A DNA stretch of 64,000 nt, taken from assembly GCA_047967505.1 (NCBI GenBank), contig CM106538.1; one strand, 5' to 3'. The position numbers and the translations under genes were made by a program. Within the stretch, counting starts at the first letter, position 1. Each line of letters starts with the position of its first letter. The DNA comes from Dipteris shenzhenensis (taxonomy: Eukaryota). Of the stretch, positions 24,641 to 50,633 are shown one piece after another. The notes beneath the pieces were generated by a model. That model ran no database searches, was not told where the DNA came from, and worked only from the letters and a program-made list of their open reading frames with translations.

Positions 24641-27293
24641 TGATGGGATATCTCAAGGTGTATGCCTCAGGCACACCTTATGTTTCTATGTGTGAGTGCT
24701 AGACGCACAGTTAGGTGCCCACAAGCACAGTTAGGTGGTGGAGAGCCACATAGGATGATTGAGAGAATCTAGGAGCAGATTGAGGAGATGATTGTGGAGC
24801 TCTGAGGTCATCAGTGATGTCAATGAGCATGTATGAGGTGCCTACTTAAGGACCTCACTCTTCTTCATTCTACAATGGAAGTAATGCAAGTATTCTGAGT
24901 TTGTGTCCACTCTACTCTTTTCCTTCAGTTTTCCAACATGGTATCAGAGCCATTTGATCCCCCTTGAGCCCATTTCTGCCACATCATCATCATCATCATC
25001 ATCATCTTCTTCTTCTTCACCATCTCTCCCTCTTCTTCCCAAAATTTGCTTAAGCCTGTTCTCCTCAGGTTCTCAACCATTTCCCACGCCCTTCCTGCTG
25101 GAGATCCACCTTGAAGGGGCGAACTTCCGGCTGCAAGGAATTGAAGAACCTCCATCTCTGCTGGTCGCCATTACACGGTTTTCGTTGATTTCTCTTCCTG
25201 TGTTTTCTCTGCGCCTGCTCGTTCTTTCTCTAATTCCTTTCAGGGGAAGCTTCTCCATCCTTGGGCTACCTTGTGCTGAAATCTGAGCAGCAATGGCTGC
25301 ATATTGAAGGAGAAAATAGAGAAAAACCAGTCAACTTTGTAGAAGGAAGAGAAGGCGACCTGACACGTTTTTGCACCTCTTCTTCCCAGAGGATCTACTG
25401 TGGTATACCAGCTTTCTTTTGCCTCAGAAAGCCCCCTTTCTTTTGCTTTGAAGAGTGAGCTATAAGCCCTCCAAGTTCAGCTCTTTAGTTTTGACAGTTT
25501 TGACAAGCTTTTGAAGATGATGCTACATAAAATGCTACTCTAGCATTTCTGGTCTTTTGAAGCTTTCAATAACTTCAGTACAAGTGTGGATTCAGTTTTG
25601 TTTTGAATTGCTAGACCTTGTTTTGATTGGAAAGTATTCATTTCACCCACTTCTATGAAGCCTGTAAGAAGAAGCATCACTGTTTGAAATTTGGTCACTA
25701 GTCTTTGCTACATCAAGTGCTCATATTTTGGAAGTCTTTCACTTATTTTTGCCTTGTAAGAGAGATAGATACTGCCCAATATCTGGGTTAGACCCTCTCA
25801 TGGCTACCCTATTTAATCTTGAGAAGTTCAATGGAAAGGGCTTCCATACATGGCAAATGAAGGTGAAATTTGCATTGATGAGGGAGAACTTATGGGGACT
25901 TGTCAAACCCACTCCTATTGCTTCTACAGCCTCCAATGCTAGAGAATCTTCAACACCGACACAACCGGCAAGGGATTAAGCTAGAGAAGAAAAGCATATG
26001 GTATAATTGCTCTTGCTCTAGGTGATGATTATATACACCATATCTCTGACTTGGAGTCTCCTTCGGAAGCTTGGCAGAAGCTAGACATGATTTTTGGTGC
26101 AAGCTCTCACATCTCTAAACTATCACTTAAAATCTCTTTCTTTGAATTGAAGATGGCTAGTGGTACTACTTTAGCAGCTCATATCAACTATATGCGGACT
26201 CTTATGACTCAATTAGCTTCTATCAACTCTCCTATTTCTCCAGATGATGCTATGGCAGTGTTACTTAAGAGCATGCCTGAAGATTATGATCACATAGTTA
26301 CCACTTTGAAAAATCTTCCTAATCCTAATCTTGAAGGTATTATCTCTGCTCTCCAAGAAGAAGAAAGGCATATGGAGCTCAGGAAAGGCAATGACACTGT
26401 TTATGCTGTAAAAGTCTAGAAGGGCAAGTATACTCCTTGCAATCACTGTGGAAAGACAAATCACCTGTCAAAGGACTGCTTCAAAATTAATCCATGCAAG
26501 CACTATGGCAAGAACAACCATAATGAGAAGTTTTGCAGATCCAAAGCAAAGAAAGAAAATGCAAATCTACTTTCAGTTGAGCCTCCACAAGATGAGGCAT
26601 CCCATGAAGATTATGCATTTTAATCATCTCTATGTATGCTCTAGATCTCTCCTTTTATGTCAAGGTACTCAGCCTGGATAGTCCTCCAAAATGAATGAAA
26701 TAAACTATTGTGTTTTGTGTGTTTTGTAAACACCTCTGGTCACTTTATGATGTAGGCCATGTGTATGTTTTGCTCCATGGTACCTCCTGCAGACATTGTG
26801 TGCATGTACATGTAGGGGAGATAACCATTGGAAGGTCTTTTTGTATCCCTTTTGTTTACCTTACACCCAAGGGAACCCTTGCTAGCATGAGAACCTAGCC
26901 ATAGATTTATCCTTGACCACCATGAGATGGCATGAGAAACTATAAGACTAGATGTATCCTTGACATAGCCAGAGGCATTCCCTTGAGGGGGGGTTTGATG
27001 GGATATCTCAAGGTGTATGCCTCAGGCACACCTTATGTTTCTATGTGTGAGTGCTAGAGGCACAGTTAGGTGCCCACAAGCACAGTTAGGTGGTGGAGAG
27101 CCACATAGGATGATTGAGAGAATCTAGGAGCAGATTGAGGAGATGATTGTGGAGCTCTGAGGTCATCAGTGATGTCAGTGAGCATGTATGAGGTGCCTAC
27201 TTAAGGACCTCACTCTTCTTCATTCTACAATGGAAGTAATGCAAGTATTCTGAGTTTGTGTCCACTCTACTCTTTTCCTTCAGTTTTCCAACA
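24641..27293 (+). mobile_element. complete gag-only LTR retrotransposon (TR-GAG-like), 2653 bp
   Basis: 298-bp LTRs 24641-24938 and 26996-27293 (TG...CA, 2 mismatches seen), TSD GAAGT, PBS 24939-24950, PPT 26985-26993, gag but no pol. Confidence 0.95.
25800..26623 (+). pseudogene. copia-type gag with two zinc knuckles, disrupted
   Basis: MATLFNLEKFNGKGFHTWQMKVKFALMRENLW...; stop at 25977, frameshift near 25990, stop at 26417; then CNHCGKTNHLSKDC and CKHYGKNNHNEKFC; terminal TAA 26621-26623. Confidence 0.9.
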
Positions 27294-28629: not shown

Positions 28630-31600
28630 ACTACAAGGCAGACAATATGCCAAAATTAGTTCAAGGGAAAGGCATCCTCCCTATGAACAATTTCACTGGT
28701 ACAAAAGGATTGGTGAAAGATGTACTCTATGTTCTGAAGCTCAGCAAGAACCTCTTGCCAGTAGTTCAAATGAGGGAACACTACTGAGTCATCTTCGATG
28801 GAGATGAATGCACTATCAGAGACAACAAATCCAGAGGATATTAGCTAGTAGGAAAAGCAGTCAAGGAAGGATGCTTGTTCAAAATGCTAGCTACAGTACC
28901 AGATTTGCATGCCATGTTAGCCCAACTACTGCAATAGATGCCACTTTTCACAAAATGGCACAAAAGATATGGACATGTCAATTTCAAAAGCTTGATAGAG
29001 CTCAGGAATCAGAATATGGAAATTGGAATTCCTAAGCTACAGTTTCTTGGAAAAGTTTGTGAAACATGCTGCTTCGGCAAACAAAAGTGAAGCAACTTCG
29101 ACAGAAGCATTTCTCGAGCATGAGGTATTCTTGATTGGATACATATAGATGTATGGGGTTATGCCCAAACTTGTAGCATCAATGGTTCACTTTACTACTT
29201 GACTTTCATCGATGACTACAACATATATTATTGGGTCTACTTTTTGAAAGAAAAATCTGAAGTCTTTTCTAGATTTCAAGAATTCAAAGCCATGGTAGAA
29301 AACCAGACACATAGAAAGATCAAAGTCATGCGATTAGATAGAGGAGGTGAATACATGTCTTCAACATTCATGATTTTTTGCAGAAGCCATGGCATTAAAA
29401 GAGACAATTCATTTGTGGAGACACTCCTTAGCAGAATGCAAGAGATGAAAGGAAGAACTGTACTTTAGTAAACAGTGCTAGATCAATGCTTAGTGAGAAG
29501 CATCTTCTAAATTAGTATTGGGTAGAAGCAATAGCCATTGCAAACTACTTGCTTAATCGGCTTTCAAGCGAACCAATTCAAGGTATGACACCTTATGAAC
29601 CATTCACTGGATATAAGCACACATGGGCATCTTTTCATATTTGGTTGCATAACATATGCCCACATACATGATGATCATCGTAGGAAATTGGATGCAAAGT
29701 CACGTAAATACATCATGGTTGGCTACAGTGAAGAAAGCAAAGCATACAAGCTTTATGATCCCATCAACCAAAAGGTCATTATCTCAAGAGATGTAATCTT
29801 TGATGAGGAATCGGAATGGAAAACCTCAAATACATAGGAGATAGATGCACCAATTACCTAGTCATCTACAGAAAAGGTTGATAAAGAAGAGCAAGAATTG
29901 CTAGAAGCACCCTGAGAAAAACTACAACAACTCAAATAGTCTACTAGGGAAAGAAGACCACCTGCTAGATTGACATATGCTCAGAAAGGCAAAGAAATTC
30001 AAGTTGAAACCACCAATTATGCTCTTATTACTACCATCATGGCTACAAATGAGCCAGTGTACTTCAAAGTTGCAATTGACAAGCCAGAATGGCAAACTAC
30101 TATGAATGAAGAAATGGATTCTTTGTACAATAATAATACTTGGGAATTATGCGACCTTCCACAAGGAAAGAAGGCCATAGCAAACAAATGGGTATACAAA
30201 GTGAAGTACAATCCAGATGGAAGTATTGAAAGATACAAAGCCAGACTAGTTGAAAAAGGATTTCACAATAGTACGGTCAAGATTATGATGAGACTTATGC
30301 TCCAGTAGTAGCAAAGATGGATTCCATACGGTTCTTGATATCACTAGGGACACTAAGCAGATGAAATGTTTACCAAGTCGATGTCAAGAATGAATTTCTT
30401 AATGGTTATCTAGACGAGAAAGTCTACATGCAACAACCAGTAGATTATGTTGAACCAAAAAAAGAGAATCAGGTTTGCCATCTCAAGAAAAGTCTCTACA
30501 ACTTAAAGCAAGCACCCAGAAGTTGGTACAGCAGAATTGATAAATATTTTGCTAACCTGGGATACATGAAATACATGAAATCCAATGTAGATCATACTTT
30601 CTACTACAAAGTTCAAGGGGAAGACATTACTATTGCACTTTTATGCGTAGATGATCTGATTGTGACTAGAAGCAAGGATAGCTTCATCAAGAAATCGAAA
30701 CAAGACTTATCTATAGAGTTTGACATGAAAGATCTTGGACTTATGCACTATTGTCTTGGTATTGAGTTTTGAAGAGATTCAGACAACACCTTCATGAGTC
30801 AACTGAAATATGTTGACAGTCTTCTGAAGAAGTTTCATATGGCATATTGCAAGATTGCAGCCACTCCCTTTTGAAACTTACTAAAGATTCAAAAAAGCTA
30901 CACTCAATGATAGGTACTATTGGCAGATCATCAGATCTCTTATATATTTGACTATCACACGGCCAGATATTTGTTATGCAGTAAGTTCACTAGCATTGTT
31001 TATGACAAATTCAAAACGATCTCATTGGAATGCAGTTCAAAGATTCTTGGGATACATAAGAGGTATAGGATAGTTTGGGATAGAATACAGATGAAGTCAT
31101 CCAAGGTTGCATGGATACTATGACCGTGACTATGCCAGAGATCATGAGACTAGGAGATCGACACAGGGATATGCATTTTTCCTTGGTCAAACTACTATAT
31201 CATGGTTGTCAAACAAACAGCTAACAACTGTTTCCTTTTCTTTGTTTGAATCAGAATATAGGACTCTCACTACAAGTGCATGTGAGGCTATATGGCTCAG
31301 AAGACTATTGTAAAAAACATTTTGCTTTGATGAATCAAAGCCAACAACAATATACTGCATTAATCAATCGGCTTGAGCATTGGCCAAGAATCTAGTACAT
31401 CACTCTAGGACAAAGCACATTGATGTCAGAGAGCACTTCATTAGAGAAAGAGTGTTACTTGGTGATATCACACTATAGCATTGTGATAGCAAAGAGAATG
31501 TTGCAGACGTCTTTACCAAACCACTCGGTAAAGAGATTATTGAGAAACATCGACAAGCTCTTGAGCTCTTGGTTTGATGTAGAGGAAGGACATTCCCATT

Positions 31601-32749: not shown

Positions 32750-33815
32750 GATGCCTCACAATTCAAGCGATTGTAGCTTCCCACTAATGCCCATAACTCA
32801 AAGATCATCCTACTCAAATAACTCCGAAAATAAAGTATTTTAAGAGTTTTTTGAATTCTACATATAAGTCAGGATTGCAAATTAGCCCTAATGCCCAACA
32901 ACTCCTAGATCAATGTTGAACCAAAAGTGTTGAACCAAAAGTCAAGAATGAAGGCCAAATTATAATCCCTATGGAATGATTGTAGCAAGTAGAAGGATTG
33001 CATCTTTACCCTGATGCCCCACAACTCCGAGCTTACTGATAAGCTTGGAAGTCAAACATAAAGGCCAAGCCATAATCACAAAGAAAGTGCAATATGTAAG
33101 ACAAAGATAGCTTGCTTGAAGTGATTGCAACTTGGCTCTAATGCCCTATAACCCCTAGCTCATTGATAAGCTAGAAGTCAAGCATAAAAGCCAAGCCTAT
33201 ATTGTACTAAGAAGTGAAAATAAAAAAATAAAAAGTCAAAAAGTGACAAGCTCCACTCAACAATGATCTAGTTGACTCGATACTCACTTAAATAAAGTAA
33301 TTCAAGAGCTTGTTATATTCCACGTGTAAGGGTGGTGTAGAGATACACCATTTGTCTAGAATGATCAAGTTCAAATAAGTTGCTTAATTTCAAGGAATTG
33401 TAGCTTTTGCCTTGATGTCCCACAACTCATAGCTCAATTCTGAGCCAAATAAAGGCTAAGCTATAATCCCCATGGAAATATTGTGGAAGTAGAAGGATTA
33501 CAACTTTGACCTGATGCTCCACAACTCCAAGCTTATTAATATGCTAGAAGTCAAGCATAAACACCAAGCCACGATAGAGAAAGATGTGATTTATAAGACA
33601 GAGATATTTTAACTAACTTGCAATGCCTAACTTTTCCTTGATGCCCTTCAACCCCTAGCTCATCGATGTGCTAGAAGCCGAGCATAAAAGCTAAGACATT
33701 ACCTCCATGGAATGATTACAACACACAAGACAAAGATATTTTAATACTTGAAGGGATTACAACTTCATCCTAGTGCCCCACAACTCATAGCTTGCTACTG
33801 AGCAAAGAGGTAGGC
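32750..33815. repeat. diverged tandem array, ~100-130-bp unit (left part)
   Basis: About 8 copies of GATTGCAACTTTACCCTAATGCCCCACAACTCCTAGCTCATTGATAAGCTAGAAGTCAAGCATAAAGGCCAAGCC-like units. Confidence 0.85.
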
Positions 33816-35479
33816 TATTAACATCCACAGAGTACGGTCACCAAATGCAGGGTAATAAATGAGTAAAGGTGATCAAGCTGAATGATCTACTTCAATGGAC
33901 AAGCTCAAGGGAGTTTGATACCCAAATACACCAAGATCAGTGATTACAAGCAATGTGCAAACAGAAGGAGTATAGCTCAAACTCAGGGAGTTTGATCCCC
34001 AAATACCCAAAGTCCGCTCCAAACCAAGGATTCAAGGCACAAGTGGTATGTTCCAACTACTGCCACCTGAAACAAGGAGATGCACACTTTTGTGCCACAT
34101 CCAAGAAGCATGAGGAGTGCAAGCGCCTTGCACTTTTCAGCTCCACATCCACAGAAATAGCCATGCCAATAGCCATGAAAGGAGTATAGCTCAAACTCAT
34201 GGAGATTGTTCCCCAAATATCATCTCGAGATAGGGTTACCATTGAGTGTCTTGCGGAAGCTGAGCCTCGCCACTCCAAGTTTAAGTCTCATGCATCATGC
34301 ATGACCACAAACAGGTGAAGGTGTGAGGGCACTCAGGGAGTTTGAGCCTCAAAACACCCAAGCCTAAGAGGCACGAGGCAAACACAAGCACTATTTGGGA
34401 ACTGGTTAGGTGTCCCAATTGCTTTAATATGGTTAGGACAAGCACTATTTTTGCTAGTAGGGAGAGATGGTAGAATAGCAATATGCCTTGGCACCCTATG
34501 GGCCCAAGAGCCCTTGGTTGTAAAGTGAGGGAGAGTGCTAAAAAGGAAAAGGGTTGGCCCTCCCTTCAAAAGGTGACATGTATAAAAGACCAAATGGTTG
34601 ACTTTGGTCTTCATTGTTGTTTGCACGAAGTTGAATACAAGCTCCCTCTTCTCTTCCAAGAGAGTGTTTTGGGTGTTCTCTTATTTCTTCATAGTGCCTT
34701 TGTGGTTTCACTCTATCCCCCTTCACTCCCTTCTCCTTCTTCCCCTCCTCCTCCCCTCCTTCTCCCTCTCCCCTCCCCTCTTCCTCTTCCCCCTTTCTCA
34801 CGTGAAACCACATTGCAACAATCTGGAGGCCGCTTGCGTAACACTTGCAGATGACTCGTGTTATGCATTGCTCCCACAAGGAGTAGCTAGGAGTGGAGAC
34901 TCCATCGGCATATCTTCAGCTACCCCATGACACATGAGTCACCACTGAGACCCACCACATTTTTGGCACTCTTGTTGGGGATAAAAGGTATTCTTTTTTA
35001 TTTGCACTTATTTTCCTTCGATACATTCCCATTGTACAAGTCTTCAACCTTACCTTGGAGCTTATTAGTGGAGTTGTAGGAGAGAAGAGAGGTGGAAAGT
35101 GAGAGAGAGGACGAAAATCTATTTTTTTTGTGGGAATGCCATTTGTGAGCATGGGAAGCTTGTCTTTGATTCTTTTTGGTGTTTCAAGTTGATAGGAACT
35201 TAGTAGGCTTGATTGCTAAGTGTGTAGGAGGTCTAATCACCCCAAAAAACAACAGAAGTAAGGATTTTTGTCAAGTTTTGAAGTAGTTTTATGTTTTAGA
35301 ACTCCCCTTTTCTGAGTTTTTGTACTTTGGATTTCAAAAAGTGTTTGTTTCCAAGTTTTTTTTCATTGAGTAGGTAGATTAGGTATGTAGCATCCCCCCA
35401 TCATAAAAATCATAAACAAAAACTGGAAAATCATTAGGAATCATCAAATCTTAGTCGACAAAATTGTGTATGACTATCC

Positions 35480-38125
35480 TGTCGGACTGTATGGCCTAGA
35501 AATACATGGACATGAAAGGGGTACTTGCCGCAATGGTGTAGCATACAATCACCATGATGGATGATGTCAGGCCAGTATGGCAACGCCCCTACCCTATGAA
35601 CCCTAAATACACACTCATAGTGAGGGAAGAAATCTAAAAACTCATAGATGCAGGATTCATCTATGAGATCGAGCATACAGACTGGGTATCACCCATTGTG
35701 ATAGTCATGAAGAAAAATGGAAAAATTAGAGTATGTGTGGATTTCAAGAAGGTTAATGCTACCATGAGGTGTGACCATGACCCCCTGCCATTCACAAAAC
35801 ATGTTCTAGAAAGGGTAGCCGAAAAGGAAGCGTATAGATTCCTAGATGGATTTTCAGGTTACAACCAAGTGTCGATTGCCCCCCAAGATCAACACAAAAC
35901 CGCCTTCGCAACCGAATGGGGTGTATATGCATTTGGGTGATGATATTCGGATTAACCAATGCTCCTGCTACCTTCCAACGTATGATGATTATGGTATTCA
36001 AGGAATATCTGAGGGACTTTATGAAAGTATTCTTGGATGATATCTATGTGAACTCGAAATGGGATGACCACCTGAAGTATCTCAGGCTCGTGCCGCTTAT
36101 ACTGCCTATCCCTCAACCCCCTTAAGTGCTAGTTTTGGGTTAAAGATGGTGTCATCCTGGGCCACATAGTGTCCCAGAATGGAATCTCGATGGACCACAA
36201 TAAAATCAAACTCATCTTGGAGTTACCGCCCCCCAGCAATGCCAAGGGAGTCCAATGATTTATGGCCATATGGGCTATTAGTGGAGATTTATCTTGTTCT
36301 ATGCGAGCATAGCCTGCCCATTATACAAACTACTAGTATCCTTTGAGTGGACCGAAGAATGCCAAGCATCCTTCGAAACCCTCAACTTAGCTGTAGCCAC
36401 TGCACCAGTGTTGACGTCACCCGATTGGAATTTAATATTCCACGTCCACATTGATGCCTCTAACTTTGCCATTGGATGTGTGTTAGCCTAACCTGGGAAG
36501 CATAATTTGGATTACCCGGTAGACTTTGCCAGCCGTTAAGTAAATAAGGTCAAGGTTAACTACACTACCACTGAGAGAGGGAGTCTCGCCATGGTCTATG
36601 TAGTAAAGAGGTTCAGGCACTACTTGTTAGCTAACAAGTTTGTCTTCTTCATGGACTATCAAGCATTGCTATACTTGATCAACAAAACCTGCATGATAGG
36701 ATGCATCACTAGATGGATGCTGATCCTACTAGAATTAGACTTCACAATCACTGTACATAAGGGCAAAAACCACGTTCTAGCCAACCACCTATCAAGGATC
36801 CCGAATGCGGTGAGTCTCTGACAGGAGTAGATGATGATCTCCCGACGCTTCCCTCTTCTTCCTTGACATCATTCCCGAATGGGTTGCCAAAATCGGCCAC
36901 TAGTTGGCCAACAGACCACCCCTAGGCCAGGGCCTCAAGTAATTAGAGCCCATAAACTCATTAAGGATGCCGCACCCTATCAGTTGATGATTGCAGGCCA
37001 ACTATACCGCATGGGCAAGGATGGTATACTGCAAAGATGCATGTGTGAACACGAATACATGGAGGTGCTTGAAGAAGCCCACTCAAGAATCGCAAGAGAT
37101 CATTTTACGCTAATGTTACAGCACGTAAAGTGCTGCAAGTTGGTCTCTGGTGGCCAACACTCTTCAGAGACATGACCAAATTCATCAAATGATGTGACCC
37201 CTGCCAACGTATCCAAATCCCGCATAGGGCAGACATGATGCCCCTGACCAGAATCTTAGTCGACCAACACTTCAAAAAATGGGGCATTGATTTCATTAAT
37301 CCCATAAGCCCAATAGCCAAGGGGATCGTGGCACGATACATCATCCTGGCCACCGACTACTTCACTAAGTGGGTAGAAGGAAGAGCCATGGCAAAGGCTG
37401 ATGCAAGAACCACTGCCAAATTCTTATATGAACAAGTCATTACGCAGTTTGGATGCCCGTTGGAGTTAGGCAGTGATCGAGAAACTCACTTCCTCAACAA
37501 AACCATAGCAATCCTGACAAGCAAATTTATGATCATTCATAGAAAGTCAATGCCATACTACCCTAGAGCAAATGGCTTGGCCAAGAGCTCCAACAAGACA
37601 TGATGTAAGATCATCACCTATACAGTAGAAGCTAGTCGTACCGACTGGGAGCATAAGCTCATAGTAACGTTATGGGCCTACAAGACCTCCTACAAAGTGG
37701 CAACACATAGTACCCCCTTTAAGTTAACCTTTGGGGTAGAGGCAGTAATGCCAATGGAGTATGTAGTGCCTAGCCTCCGTTTTGCCCGCAAAAGAAAGAC
37801 TCACAGAAAATGCGTTAGTTGAATGGCTAGTCGACTTCGAAAAGTTAGAAGAGACAAGGTTGCGTGCAACCTACTCTCTTCGAGTAGAAAAGGTCCGATG
37901 TAAGAAGTGGTTCAACCGCAACCTCAAGAACAAGGACCTAATGGAAGGAGACTTGGCACTCCTATACAGTGTCCGCAATATCAAACGTAAGCTTAAGTAC
38001 TGAGGTATGGGTCCTTACCGTGCAGTTGAGATCACTCCTTAGGGGTTGTGCCGAATAGCCACCCTTGATGGAATAGAAATGGATGGCTACCTAAGTAGGA
38101 GCAAACTAAAAAGATACTATGGACC
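35480..38125 (+). pseudogene. gypsy pol: RT, RNase H, integrase (disrupted)
   Basis: WVSPIVIVMKKNGKIRVCVDFKKVN, FLDGFSGYNQV, FGLTNAPATFQR, FLDD, HIDASNFAIG, KWGIDFI, TDYFTKWVE, YYPRANG, GPY, KLKRYY. Confidence 0.93.
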
Positions 38126-38317
38126 ACTCACTCTCTCCACCCTTCAAGCCGTGCATAGAGAAAAAGAACTCAAGGCAGAGGTGGCTAGGATGAAGTGCTA
38201 GGCCATCGAGGAAGCCAGAATTCGTAATGCTAAGATCCGACAATGTAGACAAATGACCCTGCTTAAGGCAACAGTTGAATAGATGCAACTAACGGATGAG
38301 CTAACAATAGAGCAAGC

Positions 38318-38680
38318 AGGTTGCTTGTTCAGCTACAGGTACTGCGCATGCGCATCAAAGCACTCGTGGATCCAGGAGTGAGCCACAACTTCATCTCTTG
38401 AGAGGTATGGGAAAAGCTACAGGTACCCCTAACCCTCACTATTGCCTCAATAAGAGCTATAAAGGCCAACTTCTACAAACTTTGGGTTATGTAAATCTAA
38501 GTCTAATGGTTGTTCACCAAGCCGTGGATATACGCTTTTATGTTCTCCCTACAGAGGCCTCCAAAGAACAGATTATTCTAGGGAGAACTTGGTGCTATGC
38601 CATGAACTATCAAATCGACTAGCACACCTGAACTGCTTTGCTTACCAATGGTGGCCAAATGGCAATAGTCCCATTGTGCA
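38318..38680 (+). pseudogene. retropepsin-like aspartic protease domain located downstream of integrase
   Basis: RLLVQLQVLRMRIKALVDPGVSHNFIS*EVWEKL (DPG at 38369-38377), then after one frameshift GQLLQTLGYVNLSLMV...IRFYVLP...IILGRTWCYAMNYQID*. Confidence 0.75.
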
Positions 38681-40292
38681 GACCACCCGCCCCTTCGGCT
38701 CCGACCTCATCGACCCATGACAATGAAGCAATGTGGCAACGCCAACCAAAAGCCCCAACCACCACTAGGACCCCACTTAAGGGGCCAGCTCAAAGTGAGA
38801 AGCAAGCCTGCCATAGTGGTAAACCAATGCCATTGCCCGCTCGACCGACACCACCATCCTCTGCCCAAGAATGCAAGTACAAGATGCTATCCTCTATGCC
38901 CAACGTCACTTTGATCGTGACTGATACCTAGAGAACAGTAAAGCAGCAACAGCATCTCCAGTCGCTGCCCCAAAAAAGCTTCCTTCAAACCCATCTACTC
39001 CTCGGAGAAAGCCGCGCCTAGCGCTCCCGCCTCATCCATTGCCACACACCCCCAACACTTCGAGCAACACCCCCCGCCTAGGTGGCCAAGGCAAGAAAGT
39101 CACCTGGGTCCAGAAATCAGTAGTGCAAACCTTGAAGGCATCGAAGCACCACAAGAACCTGTCTTCCCGAGATACAGCATCACAATAACCTGCCAATGAA
39201 CCAAACATAGTAGGCTAGCCTCAAGGTACCGAATACGCATTGGTGCCACAGGCAATAGTCTGACTTAACATAAGTATTGCCACAACCATAGGAGCTCTAC
39301 AAGAACCGAATTCCACCCCATGAAGAGTCACACAAGAACCTCCCCTTGGGGACAAACACTCAAAGGTAATGGCACCATCCTACTCATGAATGCAAGGGTC
39401 ATCAGTCTCGAGGATCGCTTTCCCCAAGAGGATGAACCCATCAACAACAATGAAGTTTGGCACAAAAGTGCCCCTGGCATCCAAGGTAAGGAACAAGCTC
39501 GACTCAGTGTGTACATGGCTCCTTACTCACTATGCCATAGTATAGCATCCGCCTCCACCGCATGCATCATAATCATTGCATCCAAGTCTAGGTGAGTCAG
39601 TATGGTAGGCATCTCACCCGATGCACCCGCAGCCCACTAGTCCCTATCGAACACACCATACATGCACACACGGTTAGCACCAGGTGATTAGAGTCCATTC
39701 TTGCATTTTTACAAGAGTTCATTCTCTTGCATGCTGACCTCACCCTCATGTGGCATTGCACAAGCGCACTCTACTCCGTCACCCTTTTTCCCCCACCCCA
39801 CTCCTTCCTTCCTTTTCTCCCTCTTACACAGTCACTACCCTGCCGACCGTAGCCAAACTAGTACGCTTCCGACCATTCACCAAACAAGTTTAGCGTTGGC
39901 CACTGCCATCAAAGTACAATGTCGACCGTCATCGAAAAGTACGATGTCGATTGATCCCGATATCCTATTAGTCGATGCCGAAGCCAAACACCACCACTCG
40001 TTTCCATCCCAAATCGCACTGCCCCATCGCCATTCAAGTACCACATCGATTGCAACCTTGGCCACATCTCGTCTACTGTCATCATCAAAGTTCAGTGCCA
40101 ACCGTTGCCATACAGTTTCAGCATCGATCATCACCATACCACTATCCTATCGGTCAGGTAATAGGAAATCTATAAAAGTAGGCCTACCCTGTCGAGTCGT
40201 CGCTATAGTTGTTGCCCTAAAACTCTGTCAAAATTTACCCAAAAATCTGACAGTTTCCTGTCCCCTTCCACTACAATCCAAACAGCAAGTTT

Positions 40293-42450
40293 ATGTCCTC
40301 CCGCTCTTCCTCATCTACTAATTCCATCGTCACTCAACCTCCACTCCTGTTTGTGATGGATTCCGAACACAACTTCTTCGACTTCGAAGCTGACCTAAGC
40401 CTCCACCCTTGCCCTAACTTAGAGGCCATTGGCCCATCAGATTCCCAAAGCACCCCCTTTGGCACAATTTGCATGCCGATCGAGATACCCGTGGAAGACC
40501 TATAGGACGAAGAAACTTCCACCAGGCATGCCACTCAAGAAGAGCCAGCTACAACAGGAATGTCTCCCTTGAAGACATGAAAGTGCACCTTGGTGCCAAC
40601 CGCAGGTGAGTACAAGATCGTGCAATCACAAGCACACTTGCCACTTGGAGAAGCATGGCTCCAAGAGCTAGACGCTTGCGTGATACACTTGTGCTTGGCC
40701 TATGAGGGCCACGACTACACCCTCCACTACCACACAACAATAACATATGCTGCTCTCTAGGAATCGGTAGTTGTGGAGGCACTCCATTTTGCAGGCTTGG
40801 GCAGGATAACCACCCGTCTCCCATGCCATACCTGGACATGACTCTACTGGTGGAATTCCATAAGACATACGATAGCAACACCAATATTGGTGTCTTGCAT
40901 GATGCAACAGGAAATCCCCACCACTACCAGATCAATCAGAATGTGGTGTGGGTAGCGTTCAACTTGCTAGTGGTCAAGGAGAAATACTCCAAGTAGAAAA
41001 AGCAGCTCGGCACCCTCAAGACGTAGTCTGTCACTACGATCGCCACAAGTGCAGGGGCTGCATCCAATTCACTGCCATCCATAAGCCCAAAGTAGAGCGA
41101 CTAGCAAGAGCCTTGCAATGGCTCATTCAAGTGAAGCACACAGACCATCATCAGTCTGTTGTGCCCAATATCTTGCTGAGAATGGAGAGCTTCCAAGAGA
41201 TGAATTGGGCTGACTACTATTGCAGCCAAATGCGAGATGATTTTAGCACCCATGGGGACGTCATCGGTAATCCCATGTTGTACATGCCGATCCTCTATTA
41301 CTTGAAAAGTCAACATTTGCCAGTTGGCTTCGGCCTTGCCAAAAAATTAGCCACCGGTCCTGTATAGACCAAGTAAGAAGAGATAGAAACAAGGCCCAAG
41401 AGAGCAAGGACAACACCAAGTGTCACTCCAGTCACTCAAGTGTAACCGAAAACAAGTCAGCTGTGCTTGGCTGATATGAGGACCGCCATTTGCACAAATT
41501 CATGCAACGACAACTACACCTACAACGGCTAGGTCTTCAAGATAAGGGCAAATAGGTGCAAGGAGGGCCTATTCTCATTGAAGACCTCTAGGGTGATGAC
41601 ACCATCGAAATTGGCCTCCATACAAGAGCTAAAATTATGCTGACAACCCCCGCTATGTCCTTTATCTCAGTCTCCACTAGTCCTCAAGAGACAACATCCT
41701 TTGCTACTGACACCTCTTCCACGCCATGGGCAGGCCTAGCGGAGGCCATACAATTTTGCAGCGTGCCCCAATATAGGGCAACGGGAGGCTATAGCCACAT
41801 GACGGTAGAGCAGTTGTCACATGCAGATGTGATGGAGATGAATCTCTTTGAAGCCATGGCACAACTACCCCAAGTCACTTGCATGATCTTACAGAGGAGG
41901 CAAGAGTAAGCCTCAAAACTCTCCTCCAATCTCATCCCCAAGCCTAGCTCTCTGCGCATGAAAGCCAGTCGACAATGGTCACAGCTCAGGCAACAGGCCA
42001 TGCCGCACTACATCGAGCCAAAGAATACCGGGCCGAGGTGGAAGAGCTCGAGCTAGAGCTTGAGCTCATGCTCTTACGAAGGTCAAGGATGACCTTGCCA
42101 CCAATGGTCCAAATGCTCATAGACCAAGTGGACAAGGTAGAGTCAACCCTACACAGAATGCTAGAGAAGCAGGCATAGGTAGAGCAATGGTACGCCCGCT
42201 TGCAAGAGTCCCACAACCAATAGATTTGCTCCTTACAAGATATCATGGCACAAGAGAGAAACCTAACAGTCTCCCTCCAAGAAGCAATAGAAATCCAGTG
42301 TGCCATTGGCCAATCTGAGGAGTTGGGTTGGGAAGACCATGAGTAGCAGCACTTCAGGATGTACAGGGAGGTGTTTGCACAATTAGCCACATGCACACTT
42401 GCACCATGCACCATTGCCCAAACCTTGCAAATGCACTTTGATGCACTCTA
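40293..42450 (+). pseudogene. degenerate additional (Athila env-like) ORF with coiled-coil C-terminus
   Basis: Fragmented sense-strand frames including LLVEFHKTYDSNTNIG...YQINQNVVWVAFNL, MNWADYYCSQMRDD and a heptad-like EYRAEVEELELELE...QVDKVESTLHRMLEKQ. Lies between pol and the 3' LTR. Confidence 0.5.
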
Positions 42451-45329
42451 CGCATAAAACCTCGTCTTCCACATAGACCTCACTACTCCACTTGCTCCTA
42501 ACGCCCTCTAAACTATTCTCTGCTGTAATCCCAACCACTGTCGCCCCATCTTAGCCATGTCATATTTCTCTCTTAAACTTCAGTCCACTTTCCTATCTCT
42601 TCTCTGCCCCTCTGATCTCCAAACACTATCCGCCCATTCTTAATTTTCAAGCCTGGTGCCTCACTAATCCCTTAATTATCATGCGGATGATAAAGTGATG
42701 CAACTCGCGAAGCCTGAGGAACTCACGCCATGGGTCTGCACTCCCAAAAGTTTGCATGAAGACATAAATTGGATGCAGACCTACGATCGAACCTCAGTAG
42801 CAGTCCAATCTCAAGGACACCTTGCGGCCTACCAGTCCACCACCTACCAACCCCTTGGAATAATAATCCTCTTTAATAGGGTGCTACAACTCTCCAAGAC
42901 TCACTCGAGTCCTTGGTGAGCAATTTTGAAACAATTCATGTAGCATACCCTAAGAAGTAACCGAGGAAGAGGGAAAAAATGCAGTCACCCTCTTTAGTAC
43001 CACTGCCCATCCTGCAAATATTTAGTTACCGCCTCCCCTAGATCCTGCCCAACCAACCAAAAACCTCCCCTCCCTCGGACAACACTGCTCGAGTACTCAT
43101 CTAATGCCTCTAACACCACCACCACCTAGCACGGACCCTCCTTGTCCATCTCCTTCATTGCAACACGCTACTCAAAGCAGCACATTTTGTACAAAGCACT
43201 GACGCCGCAACTTCTACAGGCCCCACAGCCAGAGCCCATGCTACTTGCAGCATGACGAAGCTCTGCCATCCCCACCAGTTTCTCCCCTTGAAGATGTTGC
43301 TTGGACTTACAGTCCTTCTAAGAGCTACCAGATAGCACACTAATGCACCATTCGAAGTGCCAGCTCAAGGGCTCCCACCTCCACCTCTATGAAATTCTTG
43401 AGGTGCACCCCCTCACATAGTTCATAGTGCAATCATTCGATGACTGGTGCCACATGCATCCCAAATGCATGAGAGAAGGATACAACCTTGCCTCGATGCC
43501 CCACTCTCAGTGATGATTGATGCAGATGTTGGCCTACTGCCAAAGTGGTGGCTCCCATTCTTAAAGCTGGAGAAATTTTGGCGCTACTACTGCAGTGTGC
43601 CCATCAATCATCGAGTCCACCCACTCTACATGCCCATGGAACGATGTTGGACTTGGGCTGCCTTTTGAGTTCTCCAGCAGTAGGACTAAGTACAACTTTC
43701 CCAAAGAAATGATGTAGGAGGGTTTTTGCTTCCACCTGCAGCCATTCAACGACACATACGCTTAGTGCCAAATCTTGCTGTCACCACTGTCGTCCATTTC
43801 AACTCCCTCATCCTCTTACTCCTCTGTGATCTTCCCACCCACAACCACCCCATCGACGATGACCACATCCACAATGTGAACAACCAAAGTGTCTTCAACG
43901 TCGACATCAGTCTCACTCAGTTCCAAGACCTCCACCTCTACCTCCGCGTCCATAATCTCCACGTGCATCACCTCCGCACTTACGAGGATATGCCAGCCAC
44001 ACATTTTTGGAAGTACCGCTCGTACCTCACTCGCCTCACATCAAGGCAGCTGGACCGCTATGCCATCCTGTAGTCAGTCCTCACCACCAATGTCCTCCAG
44101 CGCAGTTGGATCAACAATAGGAAAGGGGGCATGTTAACATCCACAGAGTACAGTCACCACAATTGTAGGGCAATCAGTGAGTAAAGGTGACCAGGCCGAA
44201 TGATCTACTTAACGAACAAGCTCAAGGGATTTTGATACCCAAATACACCAAGATCAGTGATTACAAGCAATGTGCACATGGAAGGAGTATAGCTCAAACT
44301 CAGGGAGTTCGATCCCCACATACCCAAAATCTACTCCAAAGTCCAAGGATTCAAGGCACATGTTGTATGTTCCAACTATCGCCGCCCGAAACAAGGAGAT
44401 GCACACTTCTGGGCCATGTCCAAGAAGAATGAGGAGTGCAACTGCCTTGCAACTTTCAGCTCCACATCCACGAAAATAGCCATGCCAACAAAAATAGCCA
44501 TGACAAGAGTACAGATTAAAGTCAGGAAGTTTGTTCCCCAAATATCATCCCGAGATAGGGTTACCATTGAGTGTCTCATGGAAGCTGAGCCTCGCCACTC
44601 CAAGTTTGAGTCTCATGCATCATGCATGACCACAAACGGGTGAAGGTGTCAGGGCCCTCAAGGAGTTTGAGCCCCAAATCAACCGAGCCTAAGAGGCATG
44701 AGGCTAACACAAGCACTATTTGGGAACCTGGTTAGGACCACCTCCTAATACCAGGTTTGTCCCAAGCACTTTAATATGGTTAACACAAGGACTATTTCCA
44801 CTAGTAGGGAGAAATGGTAAGAATAGCAATATGCCTTGGCACCCTACAGGCCCAAGAGCCCTTGGTTGTAAAGTGAGGGAGAGTGCTAAAAAGGAAAAGG
44901 GTTGGCCCTCCCTTCAAAAAGTGACATGTATAAAAGAGCAAATGGTTCATTTTGGTCTTCATTGTTGTTTGCACCAAGTTGAATACAAGCTCCCTCTTCT
45001 CTTCCAAGAGAGTATTTTGGGTGTTCTCTTGTTTCTTCATAGTGCCTTTGTGGTTGTCACTCTATCCCCCTTCACTCCCTTCTCCTTCTTTCCTTCCTCC
45101 TCCCTCCTTCTCCCCTCCTTCTCCCCTCCTTCTCCCTCTCCCCTCCCCTCTTCCTCTTCCCCCTTTCTTGCGTGAAACCACATTGCAACAATGTGGAGGC
45201 CGCTTGCGTGACACTTGCGAATGATTCATGCTATGCATTGCTCCCACAAGGAGTAGCTAGGAGTGGAGACTCCGTTGGCATATCTTCAACTACCCCATGA
45301 CACGTGAGTCACCATTGAGACCCACCATA

Positions 45330-46480
45330 TAGGCATAAAGCCATAATCCCTATGGACATCTTGTAGCAAGTAGAAGGATTACAACTTTACCCTAATGGCC
45401 CACAACTCCTTGCTCACTGATAAGCTAGAAGTCAAGCATAAAGGCTAAGCCATAATTCCCATGAAATTTACAATATGTAAGACAATGTTATTTTAAATTA
45501 CTTGAATGATTTCCACCTAGCTCTAATGCCCTAAAACCCCTAGCTCATTGCTAAGCTAGAAGTTAGGAATAAAAAACAAGCCATAACCTCATGGAAATAT
45601 TGCACCATGTACATCGTGTTTTTGTCAATATTTCACCCAAAATATTTATTTTAATAAAGCCCAACCCATAATCCCATGGAGATATTGTAGCAAGTAGAAG
45701 GATTGCAACTTTACCCTAATGCCCCATAACTCCCAGCTCATTGATAAGCTAGAAGTCAAGCATGAAGGTGAGAGATTGTAGCAAGTAGAAGGATTGCAAC
45801 TTTACCCTATGCCCTACAACACCTAGCTCCAACCCCTAGCTCATTGATAAGCTAGAAGTCAGGCATAAAGGCCAAGCCATAACCCCCATTGAAAGATTGC
45901 ATTATGTAAGGCAAATGTATTTTAAATACTTGAAGTGAATGAAGCTTTGGCCTTGATGCCCCACAACTCAAAGCTCATTATTGAACCAAAAGCTAGGCAT
46001 AAAGGCTGAGCTATAATTTGCTTTGTAAGTGTTGCCATAAGTATTTTCTCTCATTCTAACTCGTTGGGTTTTAGCATTTCATCTTAAAGGATCAAGTGTA
46101 CGACATCATTGGAGTTATTAAACACTACATTGAAAATCCTCTTCTACTTCAGAATGTATGTTTAAGAAAAATAGATTTACAATTGAAAAAAGATACAAGC
46201 TATTTCAAGCAATCAATAAATCTCAATCTTTCAATCGTAAACCTAGATTTCATTATCTATACCCTTAGAAAATATATTTCTTATTGTTCTAGTGATAACT
46301 ACCATGTAATGATTACATCGTGTAAGATTGGAATACTTAAAGGGATTACAACTTGTCCCTGATGACCCACAACTATTAGCTCATTAGTAAGCGAGAAACT
46401 AAGCATGAAGGCTAAGAAACCATTATCCACAAGAAAGTCAAAGTATGTACAAGAAGCTTGCATGAAGTGATTGCAATTTG
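45330..46480. repeat. diverged tandem array (right part, continuation of 32750-33815)
   Basis: About 6 more copies of the same unit; the unit split at TAGGC rejoins across the gypsy insertion. Confidence 0.85.
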
Positions 46481-46561: not shown

Positions 46562-48988
46562 ATTTCTAAATAAATCCCTCCCATAAAACTTGCACTGATT
46601 TGAGTTTTAAAAAACTTATTATAGCGATTACTTATTATAGTTCTCTTTTACATTATGAGATATTGCATCATATAGATCATGTTTTTGTCATCCTTTCACC
46701 CAAGATATATTTCATTCCCATAAGACAACTGAAACCAAGGCATTTTCTCTTCCAAATATTCTAAGAGATTCATAAATTGTGTGTAGAACAATCAAATGAA
46801 GGGACATCTGTGCATGTTTGTGTGTGTTTTGCCTATTAATCCTCCCTGTCTCTTCTCTCTTGCTTATTTTCCTTTTCTCTCCTGTTTTCTAATCCTCCAC
46901 TTCAATCCCACTTTTTCATATCATTTCATGCATCCAACTTCCCTTCCCTATTTCCATTCATTGCTTCTATCTTGGAGTTTAGAGCAGTAATGGCAAGTAT
47001 TTGGGAAGTTCTAATCCTCCTTTTCCTTATACATCTTGTGGGGGTTAAAGGTCATTGTGCCTTTACCCCGATTATGTACAATACTGTGATGCCAAAAATT
47101 GATATTTTTAACTTGGCATTGATATTGTTTTTCTCTATGTTTGATAAGAGTTTGAGTATCAAGTGATAGCCTAGCGGCTCTCACTTATTTCTATTTTCTA
47201 TGATATTGTATGGGATGGAGAGGATGAGTGGAATGGCTCATTGTAAATACCATAGGTATGAATTATAAATACCTTGGTATGGGGTGAGAGTTATTTGTGT
47301 ATGGGATATTATGGAGTTTTTAGAAAATAGGAAGAGTGAGTCATATAAAGTGGTGGGCTCATGTCCATGTGTTCCAATAATATAAGAGAGGCCACATGCC
47401 AAGCATGTGGAAGGCATGTGGAGGAGTGTGAAGTCAAGAGGAATCCTTCTAGAACTCCTATGTGGAATAAGGAGGATGTGGACATGTGGAAAAGAGAGGG
47501 TCCCTATGGGCTCCATGTGGGGAGACTCTTGACTTTCTCAATATTTTAAGAGTCTTGAGCACCTTTTGATGGGACACATGGCAAGAGTAGCCAAAAAGGA
47601 CATGGACGGTGACATACGTGCTTATGTGATTGATGGGGAAAGGAATCTACAGGTAGCAATTGTAAATGGGTGAAGGAGGGTAACAAAATCTCTATAAAAG
47701 GAGCCCTCCTCTCCCTTGTTCATCAGAATCTCTTCCACCATTGGGCCTTATATTGCTGTAGTTCTAGTCTCCGCAAGCCTCTTCCATGAGCCTTCTCTTC
47801 CTCTTGTAGATATTCTCTTATGTAGACTCTTGAGTCCTTCTCTCTCTAGTTTATTCTCTCTCTATGAGTAGCCTTGGAGCTTCTGCTCCCTCTTGTATGT
47901 ATGAAACCTCTTCTTCTCCCTTGTGTTTGTAGTGTTGAGGTGGATTCTCACTCTATTTGTAATGAAGGTCACTTCAGGTTCTCTCTCTCTCTTGAGTGTC
48001 TCTTCCCTTTTCTTTCTTTCAAAGCCTTAAAAGTTCTTTCTATTCGGCTGCTCACTGTGCACACATGGTCCATTTGTTTCCCGAGCCACTATGCAAACTT
48101 CTTCCCCTCTTCTAGGCGAAATCTATGAGGGGTGGATCGTTGATGAAGGTAGAGTCTTGAGGGAGCATCCTACTCAAGCGAAATTAGCTTGTTAGTTTTC
48201 ATGATAGTTTGACCCCCTATTAGTGTTTTGCTCATAACTTTCTGCTATTGTAATGAAATTTATATCAGCGCGAAGCTCTCTTCAAGGCGCATGTTCCTAT
48301 ATAATCAGATCTTAAATCAGATACTGTTGCAAAAAGTTATGAGTCTCTGTGTTTGATAGTCTGTTTTCATGACAGTTTTTACCCCCTTCCAGTAACCCTA
48401 GAAGAGGCATGTGTTTTGATGAGATAAAGAAGATGCTTGGAAGAACTCCATTAGAAGAGATTGCAACCCGTTTAATAAGACTTGAAGATTGTGAAGGTGA
48501 TGCTCAAGCTATTCGCATAGTCACCATGATCATATCCTTTATGTTTGCACTCTTGAATATGTTGGTGAATTGACAATGCCGTCAGCAGGCACAATGATAG
48601 ATTGGGGATTGTTCCATGCACTGGCAGCTTGGTGTAAAGAAGAGTTGAGTCTTTGGGTAGTTTTCGACTATAACAGTGGAGTGGTGATTCTTAATGTTTT
48701 CAACTTCTTTTGCTATGCAAATGATGAAGATTACAATATCTTGAAGCTTTTATGTGCACTTCCTATTGTGAGAAGGGTGATTCTAGAATGCATGTATACA
48801 CAATGTTTTCATGGTGCTGGTTGGTCACTTATTTTTGAAGATTTTGTTGAGGATCACATTGTGGAGGGTTTTCAACAAGTGGTTATGCATAATAAGTTGG
48901 TCTTGGTATACTAAGGCTCTGTGGGATCTTGTTCGGATCTTGTTTGGGATATTATTTCGATCTTGGTGTTTTCTTTTTGTGTTTCATC

Positions 48989-50378
48989 ATGGTGAAGATT
49001 CCAGTGTTTCGAGGGACCCAAGGGGAAGACCCGGAGTCTTATCTTCGAGATTTTGTTCAAGGATGCCGGCTTTCTGGATGGTCCATGAAGGATCGGGCGG
49101 AGATTTTGCCTGATTTTCTTGAAGGTATAGCCTTGAGTTGGCATGAGACCTTGCCGGACTCTACCAAGGAGGACTGGGACCAAGTGGTGGCAGCAATGAA
49201 GCAGAGATTTGGGGCAGTGGAGTTGCCAAATGCTTTGATGTTGCAGTTGGACCGGTTCTATCAAGGAGAGGGTGATTTGGTCTCTGTGTTGGCAATCCGA
49301 TATAAAACTTTATGGACAAAGTATGAAAGGGCAGCTTTGCGAGCTATGGCATCTGCATCATCGGCCCCTCAAAGTCTCTCAGGGATGGAGCACTTAAAGA
49401 TGAGCAAATTTGTTATGGCTTTGGAGCCTCGTCTTCGCTCAAAGGTAATGAGTAAAGATCCAACAACATACGTGGAGGCACTTCGCATTGCGACCAAGAA
49501 AGAAGCTTCTCTAAAGATCGAATCCTCTTTTGTGTCTTCAACAGCTTCAACTTCTAAGGTGGAGGTAATGGGCACTCCTCAAGTACCAAAATCCTCTGAG
49601 TTAAATCATAATATCTCCCAATTGATGGCAGAGTTTGCTGATTTGAAATTGCATTTGGTTAATGCACGACAACCTAGAGCACCAAAGAGTGAAGATAGGC
49701 CTCAAGATAGGAGTGGGGTCACTTGCTATGAATGTAATGAAAAAGGTCACTATCGCCCCGAGTGTCCTAGATTGAGAAAGAAAGAAGAAAAACAAGTATC
49801 CTTGTTAGAAGCTTCTTCAGGGGATGAGGAAAGAGAGGTAATGATGGCTAAACGGGGGCGTGGTAAACCAAAAGAAGAAGAAGAAAGCAAGGAAGAAGTA
49901 GATGAGGAACATCAGGAAGAGGAACACCGTAGTAAGAAAAAGAAGGCATCTAGAAGGAGAATTAGCCGATCAGACTTTCCTTTAGGACAAGGAATTGGAA
50001 GCTATGACTTGTTGTCCGACCTTAAAGAAAAGGAAGCTCATATCACCTTTGGTCAATTACTTGCTTTGTCTCCAAAACTACGGAAGGAATGGGGAAAACT
50101 AGCAAGCACAAGGGTGTCAAAGAAGAAAAAGAAGAAAAGTGCCAATCCTGTTGTTCAAAAGGTAGATATAGATGTTGGTGATGATGTACCTATGGTTGAT
50201 GTGATCATTGATGGTCAAGTGATTTCTAATGTGTACATTGATGGAGGTGCATGGATTAATGTCATGAGTGAGAAGACCATGATTGATGCTGATTTAAAAT
50301 ACTCTAGTACTACCTCTCCTTATCGCATCAAATTGGCTGACAACACTAGGGTTAAGACCTTGGGAGTTGTGAAGAATC
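48989..50378 (+). pseudogene. Tat-like gag plus N-terminal half of protease (interrupted by copia)
   Basis: MVKIPVFRGTQGEDPESYLRDF..., CYECNEKGHYRPEC, VYIDGGAWINVMS. The frame resumes in register (KNLEVDVCG) after removing the insertion and one TSD. Confidence 0.9.
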
Positions 50379-50633
50379 TATAAAGAATAAGGGAGAGAGA
50401 TAGGAGACTCAAGTTCAGCTTTCTTCACAACACACAAAAGAGAGAGGACACAAGGTTGGAGGGTGAAGCCTTTCTTCACTTTTGCACACAACAACAATAC
50501 AATAGAAGAGGGAAATACCCTATATGTCAAACCCTAGAATACGTGGTTCATATGTGAACCCAAACCAAAAACATACGTGGTAGTCTAACTACACCACGAG
50601 TACAACTAACATAGGCGGTGACATAAATGATAG

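Follow-up and report, generated by a model that had tools for sequence, protein, structure and literature searches.

Within a 64,000-nucleotide stretch of Dipteris shenzhenensis DNA (GenBank assembly GCA_047967505.1, contig CM106538.1; hereafter the window), an 11.5-kb Ty3/gypsy long terminal repeat (LTR) element at positions 33816-45329 carries a retropepsin-like segment behind its integrase (INT), which raises the question of what a protease domain is doing at that end of pol. An earlier interpretation made from the letters alone (the sequence-only reading) had proposed that the element family, labelled Athila-like, possesses either a second protease, perhaps one that processes downstream extra ORFs, or a permuted pol. 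The analysis described here shows that the segment, at 38321-38619, is what decay has left of a second retropepsin domain (PR2). In one clade of non-chromoviral Ty3/gypsy elements, PR2 regularly extends the C-terminus of Pol, and it is hence a trait of the element family, not of the window copy alone.

In the window, the integrase frame reads through GPYRAVEITP and KLKRYYGP at approximately 38100-38130 and continues into a helical-looking, K/E/R-rich linker of 65 codons (KRYYGPLTL..., 38112-38320), which is identical to the metagenome locus L001 at 22 of 44 positions and to P0152, a protein of the fern Adiantum nelumboides, at 24 of 65. Four stops lie within 37800-38320. The N-terminal half of PR2 (38321-38467), recovered by Pfam and by tblastn with P0152, starts one frame over and reads ...RIKALVDPGVSHNFIS at 38321-38398, with a stop directly after it at 38399-38401; it holds the catalytic-loop remnant ALVDPGVS. 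A second frame change occurs near 38465, followed by the C-terminal half (38464-38619), which reads GQLLQTLGYV...RFYVLP...IILGRTW...QID and has a stop at its end. PR2 is thus interrupted by one stop and one frameshift, and its catalytic triplet is DPG, with proline in place of serine or threonine.

The retropepsin-like pattern on which the sequence-only reading was built is borne out by a profile made from PR2 of the relatives only, which puts the fragment 38311-38619, including the C-terminal half, at the top of the 2735 fragments that the window yields in six frames (E = 1.1e-4). When aligned with X at its two breaks, window PR2 is identical to L001 at 24 of 83 positions, to the locus L004 at 25 of 88 and to P0152 at 26 of 88, with alignment scores of 90-91, whereas 300 shuffles peaked at 43-54. 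In tblastn, P0151 and P0152 from Adiantum match the window collinearly through INT, the linker and both halves of PR2, with identities of 42% for the INT C-terminus and linker, 34-43% for the N-terminal half (43% over 23 residues with P0152) and 41% for the C-terminal half (over 32 residues with P0151 and P0152). The collinearity between the window and its relatives covers INT, linker, PR2 and a motif in the tail that follows.

Curated Pfam cut-offs are not reached by window PR2 (18.3 versus 24.3 bits). The three families that the sequence-only reading had named do match its N-terminal half, namely Asp_protease_2 (E = 0.004), gag-asp_proteas (0.015) and RVP_2 (0.044), all under their cut-offs, whereas PR2 of the intact locus L004 (residues 2011-2094) exceeds the cut-offs of gag-asp_proteas (35.1 versus 28.2 bits) and of RVP (24.9 versus 20.7 bits). 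The broken state of the window copy and its sub-threshold matches would also fit a nested or recombined protease fragment of another element, or a chance resemblance. In the window, however, as had been described, no LTR, target-site duplication (TSD) or gag separates INT from PR2; at least 13 other sequences, drawn from several lineages, are collinear with it in the linker and PR2; and the alignment scores are far above those of the shuffles. Contradicted by these collinear relatives, by the shuffle test and by the intact open reading frames (ORFs) described below, such an origin is extremely improbable.

Relatives were sought among proteins by an exhaustive HMMER search with the window integrase, which yielded 150 representatives; three of them (P0003, P0008 and P0094) run past the integrase C-terminus into a homologous helix and then ALLDTGA or ALVDTGA. 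None of the 150 gave a separate PR2 match to the window beyond 38050 at E 0.01, and a search for homologous proteins with the window INT C-terminus and linker against longer proteins gave none at E 1e-5. A search based on the tail then found P0151-P0153 of A. nelumboides, two of which (P0151 and P0152) are each a single protein with INT, linker, a complete protease-like domain (LLDSGARHN...NLGRQW...IIDW) and over 200 additional residues. The order INT-helix-PR2 is present in P0094, P0151, P0152, P0185, P0008 and P0225, and the only named hosts among these relatives so far are those of the A. nelumboides proteins.

Searching with the window reverse transcriptase (RT) gave at least 120 relatives among the matches listed. 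P0185 (1434 aa) is a single ORF with the order RT-RNase H (RH)-INT-linker-PR2-tail, starting just upstream of RT. P0186, P0188, P0171 and P0242, with RTs 68-85% identical to that of P0185, read gag(CCHC)-protease-spacer-RT, with a spacer of approximately 330-460 aa. By RT, the window is closest to P0154 (78% over a shorter 132-aa RT query), P0155 and P0156, all of which have spacer sequence upstream of RT. The protein relatives alone include no single sequence with both proteases, and viral contigs scanned with P0185 gave no match.

Both proteases are found together in metagenome contigs, which were scanned with an alignment of six PR2-clade proteins and yielded 80 loci. Three of these are uninterrupted ORFs, L001 (2584 aa, open at the 3' end), L002 (2458 aa) and L004 (2383 aa), in which Pfam identifies, in order, Retrotrans_gag, an aspartyl protease (PR1), RVT_1, RNase H, Integrase_H2C2, rve and a second aspartyl protease, PR2. 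The full layout of the intact members is gag-PR1-spacer-RT-RH-INT-helix-PR2-tail, with a gag composed of Retrotrans_gag and CCHC. The motif D[ST]GA occurs exactly twice per ORF, at 951 and 2228 in L001 and at 413 and 2017 in L004. At the DNA level, L001 and L002 share 99.7% identity, and L003, which carries in-frame stops as a decaying copy does, shares 87% with L001; no DNA similarity is detectable between L004 and L001. PR2 also follows INT in L003, L005, L006 and L018, for a total of seven of the 80 loci. Pfam detects no chromodomain in L001, L002 and L004, and for L002 and L004 neither the tail nor the ORFs that follow give an env-like or Athila ORF-1 match.

Sibling copies thus hold INT and PR2 in one ORF with a canonical protease ahead of RT (L001, L002 and L004), and of the two options of the sequence-only reading it is the second protease that stands; the processing of downstream extra ORFs suggested for it is conjectural. 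A permuted pol, in which the sole protease moved from before RT to behind integrase, would account for the window copy, where no protease precedes RT, just as had been noticed, and for the start of the P0185 ORF just before RT. It is contradicted by the two proteases in each of the three intact ORFs. Moreover, PR1 precedes RT in the continuous ORFs of P0186, P0188 and P0171, which share 77-85% RT identity with P0185, and spacer sequence stands upstream of RT in P0154, P0155 and P0156. No gag and no protease was detected between the 5' LTR and RT of the window copy by Pfam, the PR2 profile or tblastn; because gag is missing too, this copy is read as a deletion derivative, and its upstream protease is absent because gag, PR1 and spacer were lost altogether. 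A permutation is accordingly given very little weight.

Several side observations concern the organisation of these ORFs. The gap between PR1 and RT is approximately 330-490 residues long and has no Pfam match in P0186, P0188, P0171, P0242, P0264, P0041 and L004 (511-920), compared with 79-234 residues in 32 other gypsy relatives; the L001 spacer is approximately 220 residues. This spacer is poorly conserved except at its end (FK.YTIQDR...YDGP..K.IDLA.PGE..KP.YIA.DL). Integrase_H2C2 is matched in two stretches in P0185, P0161 and L004, and once in the window copy and L001.

The distribution of PR2 was mapped on an integrase tree of 83 rows, made up of the window, nine proteins and 73 of the 80 loci, namely those whose high-scoring segment pair spanned 190 residues or more. 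A row was counted as lacking PR2 if it had at least 900 bases of downstream sequence and no PR2 match, and 30 rows were too short downstream to score. One branch, with an SH-like approximate likelihood ratio test (SH-aLRT) support of 89, parts 16 PR2-bearing rows from 37 without PR2, and the rows nearest to the window integrase are L001-L003 (62% identity). The length of the pol frame past the end of INT, a measure that is independent of any PR2 match, is 432-449 codons in intact PR2 loci versus 2-72 in loci without PR2. These data, together with the seven loci and the protein relatives, also dispose of the possibility that the segment is confined to this copy, which the sequence-only reading had set against its own proposal.

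Of the 14 PR2 sequences, 12 retain D[ST]GA, the exceptions being P0224 (NTG) and the window (DPG), with L001 and L002 counted although they are near-copies; the G-[RKL]-x-W motif is likewise kept. In the alignment (A1), A22 and A28 are invariant, D25 and G27 are nearly so, and the catalytic-loop columns are the most conserved. Because D[ST]GA is retained in 12 of the 14 sequences, the window DPG is decay, one of the two explanations that had been offered for it; the other was a non-catalytic module.

The AlphaFold2 model of P0152 PR2 (not of the window copy itself) predicts a retropepsin fold for this relative, with a predicted local distance difference test (pLDDT) score of 87.3 and a predicted template modelling (pTM) score of 0.80 in one of five models, the other four scoring approximately 54-56. 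The best Foldseek matches of this model are the RVP domains of Ddi1 (template modelling (TM) scores of 0.70-0.78; E = 5.7e-6 and TM 0.76 with 7d66_A, TM 0.78 with 5yq8_A), followed by the XMRV and HIV-1 proteases, and the listed matches span E values from 5.7e-6 to 3.5e-4. The score of the ESM Atlas for retropepsin families was only 0.77, a lead too weak for use. A PR2 homodimer prediction reached 0.62, versus 0.00 for the best control, with a D25-D25 contact; contact agreement among the runs was at least 96% and partner pLDDT at least 90. Among proteins of solved structure, 21 of 30 known as pairs attained this mark, and none of 23 known as single chains did.

The linker and the tail that frame PR2 have features of their own. 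In a model of P0094 comprising part of INT, the linker and PR2, of which secondary structure alone was used (pLDDT 49), the linker is one helix of approximately 40 residues (residues 240-280, pLDDT 63-79) between the SH3-like C-terminal strands of INT and PR2. The tail after PR2 is P/S/T/K-rich and approximately 270 aa long (6338-7150 in L004, 6578-7375 in L002 and 1207-1434 in P0185). Four lineages share a tail motif of approximately 27 residues, W-x-[IV]-[PR]-K-x2-L-x2-Q-G-[YW]-x2-G-x3-W-[ILV]-P-K, alongside further W-x-[PR]-K repeats, which could be cleavage or binding sites. Neither this tail nor the PR1-RT spacer has a Pfam match, and the same holds for the ORFs that follow pol. In the window, a P/S/T-rich tail remnant occupies 38623-39161, with the decayed motif KKVTWVQKSVVQTLKAS at approximately 39090-39140; it was identified by tblastn with the P0185 tail, whose residues 206-275 match 38958-39161 (E = 5.5e-4).

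Selection on these segments was estimated as the ratio of nonsynonymous to synonymous substitution rates (dN/dS) by the Nei-Gojobori method, per segment, between L001 and L003, the latter itself decaying. The ratio is 0.02 for PR1, 0.03 for RT and for RNase H, 0.06 for integrase and 0.02 for its C-terminus, 0.11 for gag and 0.14 for the PR1-RT spacer, and it is 0.42 for the linker, 0.44 for PR2 and 0.63 for the tail. The ratio for PR2 is below 1, but only marginally so, with approximately 19 substitutions in 102 codons. The comparison points to a constraint on PR2 that is relaxed, not absent. Stronger evidence for selection lies in the extension of approximately 430-450 codons, which is open in L001/L002 and in L004, although the DNA of these lineages is saturated with respect to each other. 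As a side observation, the synonymous rate (dS) between L001 and L003 drops from 0.41-0.70 across gag-INT to low values in PR2 (0.115) and the tail (0.244); recombination between lineages, or else constraint at the RNA level, could account for this.

Across lineages, PR2 evolves far faster than PR1, which is 63-72% identical where the RTs are 80-86% identical. Between P0185 and the lineage of P0008, P0224 and P0225, identity is 80-82% in RT, 72-74% in the integrase core, 51-53% in the integrase C-terminus and 41-48% in the linker; PR2 of P0185 has a 26-residue match to P0008 at E 1.4 and nothing more in that lineage, and is approximately 22% identical to that of P0152. In a tree of protease domains, the PR2 sequences are grouped weakly (37/0), on long branches, outside the PR1 group of the same clade (100/98). 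PR2 may have arisen by duplication of PR1 or by capture.

Taken together, the conserved loop, the predicted fold and the open extension suggest that PR2 in live elements is probably an active, dimeric aspartic protease acting on the C-terminus of Pol, and catalysis in such elements is likely. PR2 would dimerise in the manner of retropepsins, with the two catalytic aspartates facing each other, and the helix ahead of it may aid dimerisation. It would then act on the C-terminal end of Pol and free integrase, the tail protein or both, and PR1 would handle classical gag/pol processing. A more specific proposal, offered with some hesitation as falling a little short of an even chance, is that PR2 is a catalytically active second protease with a job of its own, either the freeing of integrase and the tail protein or the formation of a pepsin-like pseudo-dimer of PR1 and PR2 that needs no Gag-Pol dimerisation. 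On either scheme, the PR2 clade would be the first among LTR retroelements to have a pair of working proteases within a single polyprotein.

Several points weigh against this interpretation. The divergence of PR2 is much faster than that of PR1, and its dN/dS of 0.44 is just marginally below 1, as against 0.02 for PR1. P0224 has an otherwise readable PR2 with NTG in place of DTG. The alignment used for the P0152 model included PR1 sequences, and the homodimer prediction may merely recall solved retropepsin dimers. The weak grouping of the PR2 sequences in the protease tree (37/0), which is compatible with either origin of PR2, adds to these.

Some of the same points would be expected if PR2 were a conserved non-catalytic module of retropepsin fold that dimerises or scaffolds the INT C-terminus or the tail, or binds a host factor. 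The linker, PR2 and tail share ratios of 0.42-0.63, compared with 0.02-0.06 for PR1, RT, RH and INT; a canonical PR1 is already available for processing; one family member has lost the catalytic aspartate in NTG; and the nearest structures are the RVP domains of Ddi1 and not retroelement proteases. Ddi1-type RVP domains sit within larger adaptor proteins. This explanation nevertheless has to contend with D[ST]GA in 12 of 14 PR2 sequences from lineages that are otherwise approximately 20-35% identical, with a catalytic loop whose columns are the most conserved of the alignment, and with the retained G-R/K-x-W motif, and we consider it unlikely, though a serious competitor to an active protease.

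The element that holds the window copy of PR2 is flanked by a perfect 5-bp TSD, TAGGC (33811-33815, read from the sequence, with the same five bases at 45330-45334, read directly). From the LTRs and the perfect TSD it follows that 33816-45329 is one insertion, whose contents were inserted together or decayed in place. All oriented features are on the + strand. The 5' LTR (33816-34959, ends TA...CA) and the 3' LTR (44132-45329, ends TG...TA), defined by blastn self-comparison and reading of the ends, are 87% identical over approximately 1.2 kb; the window copy is an old insertion, with its TSD intact. A decayed primer-binding site, TGGCACTCTTGTTGGGGA, lies at 34964-34981; 13 of its 18 bases agree with TGGCGCCGTTGCCGGGGA, which occupies this position in the intact relative L001, and presumably it is not of the tRNA-Met type. 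No tRNA genes were found in the window. A polypurine tract, AGGAAAGGGGGCA, read directly at 44119-44131, adjoins the TG that starts the 3' LTR.

Between the LTRs, Pfam matches only RVT_1, RNase H, Integrase_H2C2 and rve, every match on the + strand, and the order RT-RH-INT, the LTR pair with its TSD, the primer-binding site and the polypurine tract together identify a Ty3/gypsy element. A leader at 34982-35484 gives no Pfam or tblastn match, and homology to the proteins of relatives starts at 35485, approximately 520 bases past the primer-binding site. RT (35485-36270) is frameshifted, contains stops, matches RVT_1 and is 75% identical to P0154 over 150 aligned residues in tblastn. RNase H occupies 36348-36734 (RT_RNaseH_2, E = 2.9e-26; RT_RNaseH, E = 3.1e-22). 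The integrase (36945-38111) comprises a zinc finger, a catalytic core and a C-terminal GPY domain (Integrase_H2C2 and rve); it is 58% identical to P0152 in tblastn and contains stops, three of them within 37121-37840. Beyond the tail remnant, a 3' internal region of 4.9 kb (39162-44118) has no Pfam match in six frames and no tblastn match to relatives at E 1 or better; under relaxed tblastn settings, the only matches were short, dispersed and of low complexity (E 0.08 or worse). No chromodomain, Athila ORF-1, env-like ORF or additional RNase H (aRH) was detected by Pfam in six frames of the element, and the Athila-like label of the sequence-only reading is not borne out by these matches.

The window copy is a 5'-deleted, non-autonomous fossil that lacks gag, PR1 and the PR1-RT spacer. 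Its 5' deletion (34982-35485) ends within approximately 10-25 codons of the position of the P0185 ORF start; this could be chance, could point to a deletion derivative shared by the two, or could stem from the copying of a spliced RNA.

Diverged repeats with a spacing of approximately 127-131 nt, 60-90% alike, are present on both flanks of the element (32856-33803 and 45338-46411), so the element was inserted into a repeat array; TRF did not detect these flanking repeats. A second gypsy element, at 47085-59828, has LTRs that are 96.7% alike and a canonical protease (55876-56091) directly before RT (from 56335). A nested element on the opposite strand interrupts the protease region of this second element; the repeats that bound the nested element, 50381-50674 and 55579-55872, are 99.3% identical. 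Two 299-nt direct repeats, 24640-24938 and 26995-27293, are 99.3% identical and 2.4 kb apart, and may represent a small young LTR element. A Ty1/copia-type RT fragment lies at 29940-30772, and a copia-like end of P0151 matches 29841-30200. Among the RT proteins, P0170 and P0262 are of plant type and are labelled Enterobacter cloacae complex in their source, probably as plant DNA contaminating bacterial assemblies.

We conclude that the integrase-fused second protease is a new variant of Ty3/gypsy architecture, of which the window copy itself is a dead example. Full-text searches of the literature turned up no description of a protease after integrase, and the supplements of REXdb and of the Tat paper may hold such elements. 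Known domain gains of plant LTR retrotransposons include the chromodomain, an extra RNase H and an ALKB domain, and a protease duplicate behind integrase is a different kind of gain from these. In the available text of one study, the stable gain of new domains by plant LTR retrotransposons is considered rare (PMC9289625). The architecture raises a question of polyprotein processing, with two retropepsins approximately 1300-1600 residues apart in one chain (catalytic motif to motif), and the PR2 set makes up a natural series of retropepsin domains that evolve fast. The architecture is also a warning for annotation. According to the accessible text of the REXdb survey, elements with domains out of the expected order or in multiple copies were dropped as likely mispredictions, and the word 'fern' is absent from that text (PMC6317226). 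Because elements with multi-copy domains are removed in this way, standard pipelines may discard or split the PR2 clade in the very large genomes of ferns.

Among known systems, the Athila/Tat/Ogre (OTA) elements resemble the PR2 clade in their LTRs with a 5-bp TSD, presumably in a primer-binding site that is not of the tRNA-Met type, in their gag-PR-RT-RH-INT order and in a long 3' region in which no genes are recognisable. The text of the same survey states that non-chromoviruses prime with tRNAs other than Met, that most OTA elements have large non-coding regions, and that an env-like or Athila ORF-1 extra ORF occurs in only part of the Athila elements (PMC6317226). The PR2 clade differs from OTA in its in-frame post-integrase retropepsin and its very long PR1-RT spacer; its gag comprises Retrotrans_gag and a CCHC-like knuckle, and Pfam finds no Athila ORF-1, env-like match or aRH. 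With the chromoviruses the clade shares a defining add-on fused to the integrase C-terminus. In chromoviruses, however, the add-on is a chromatin reader for targeting, and in the PR2 clade, where no chromodomain was found, it has a protease fold. The similarity to clan AA retropepsins and the RVP domain of Ddi1 comprises the predicted fold (TM 0.70-0.78), the D[ST]GA loop, the G-R/K motif and, in a prediction that may recall solved dimers, a symmetric dimer with apposed aspartates, whereas the position after INT and a rate of change much faster than that of its own PR1 set PR2 apart.

Gmr1-like gypsy elements and Ty1/copia show that the order of pol domains is changeable in LTR elements. Those are true permutations, with one copy per domain; the PR2 clade keeps the canonical order and adds one domain. 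The nearest analogue is found in Tat elements, for which the available text describes a 'post-integrase' additional RNase H (aRNH), sometimes in a separate ORF (PMC13468544). As described there, a pol-type catalytic domain has been doubled in Tat, with the extra copy downstream of integrase; Tat doubles RNase H, and the PR2 clade doubles the protease, always fused in frame behind a helical linker.

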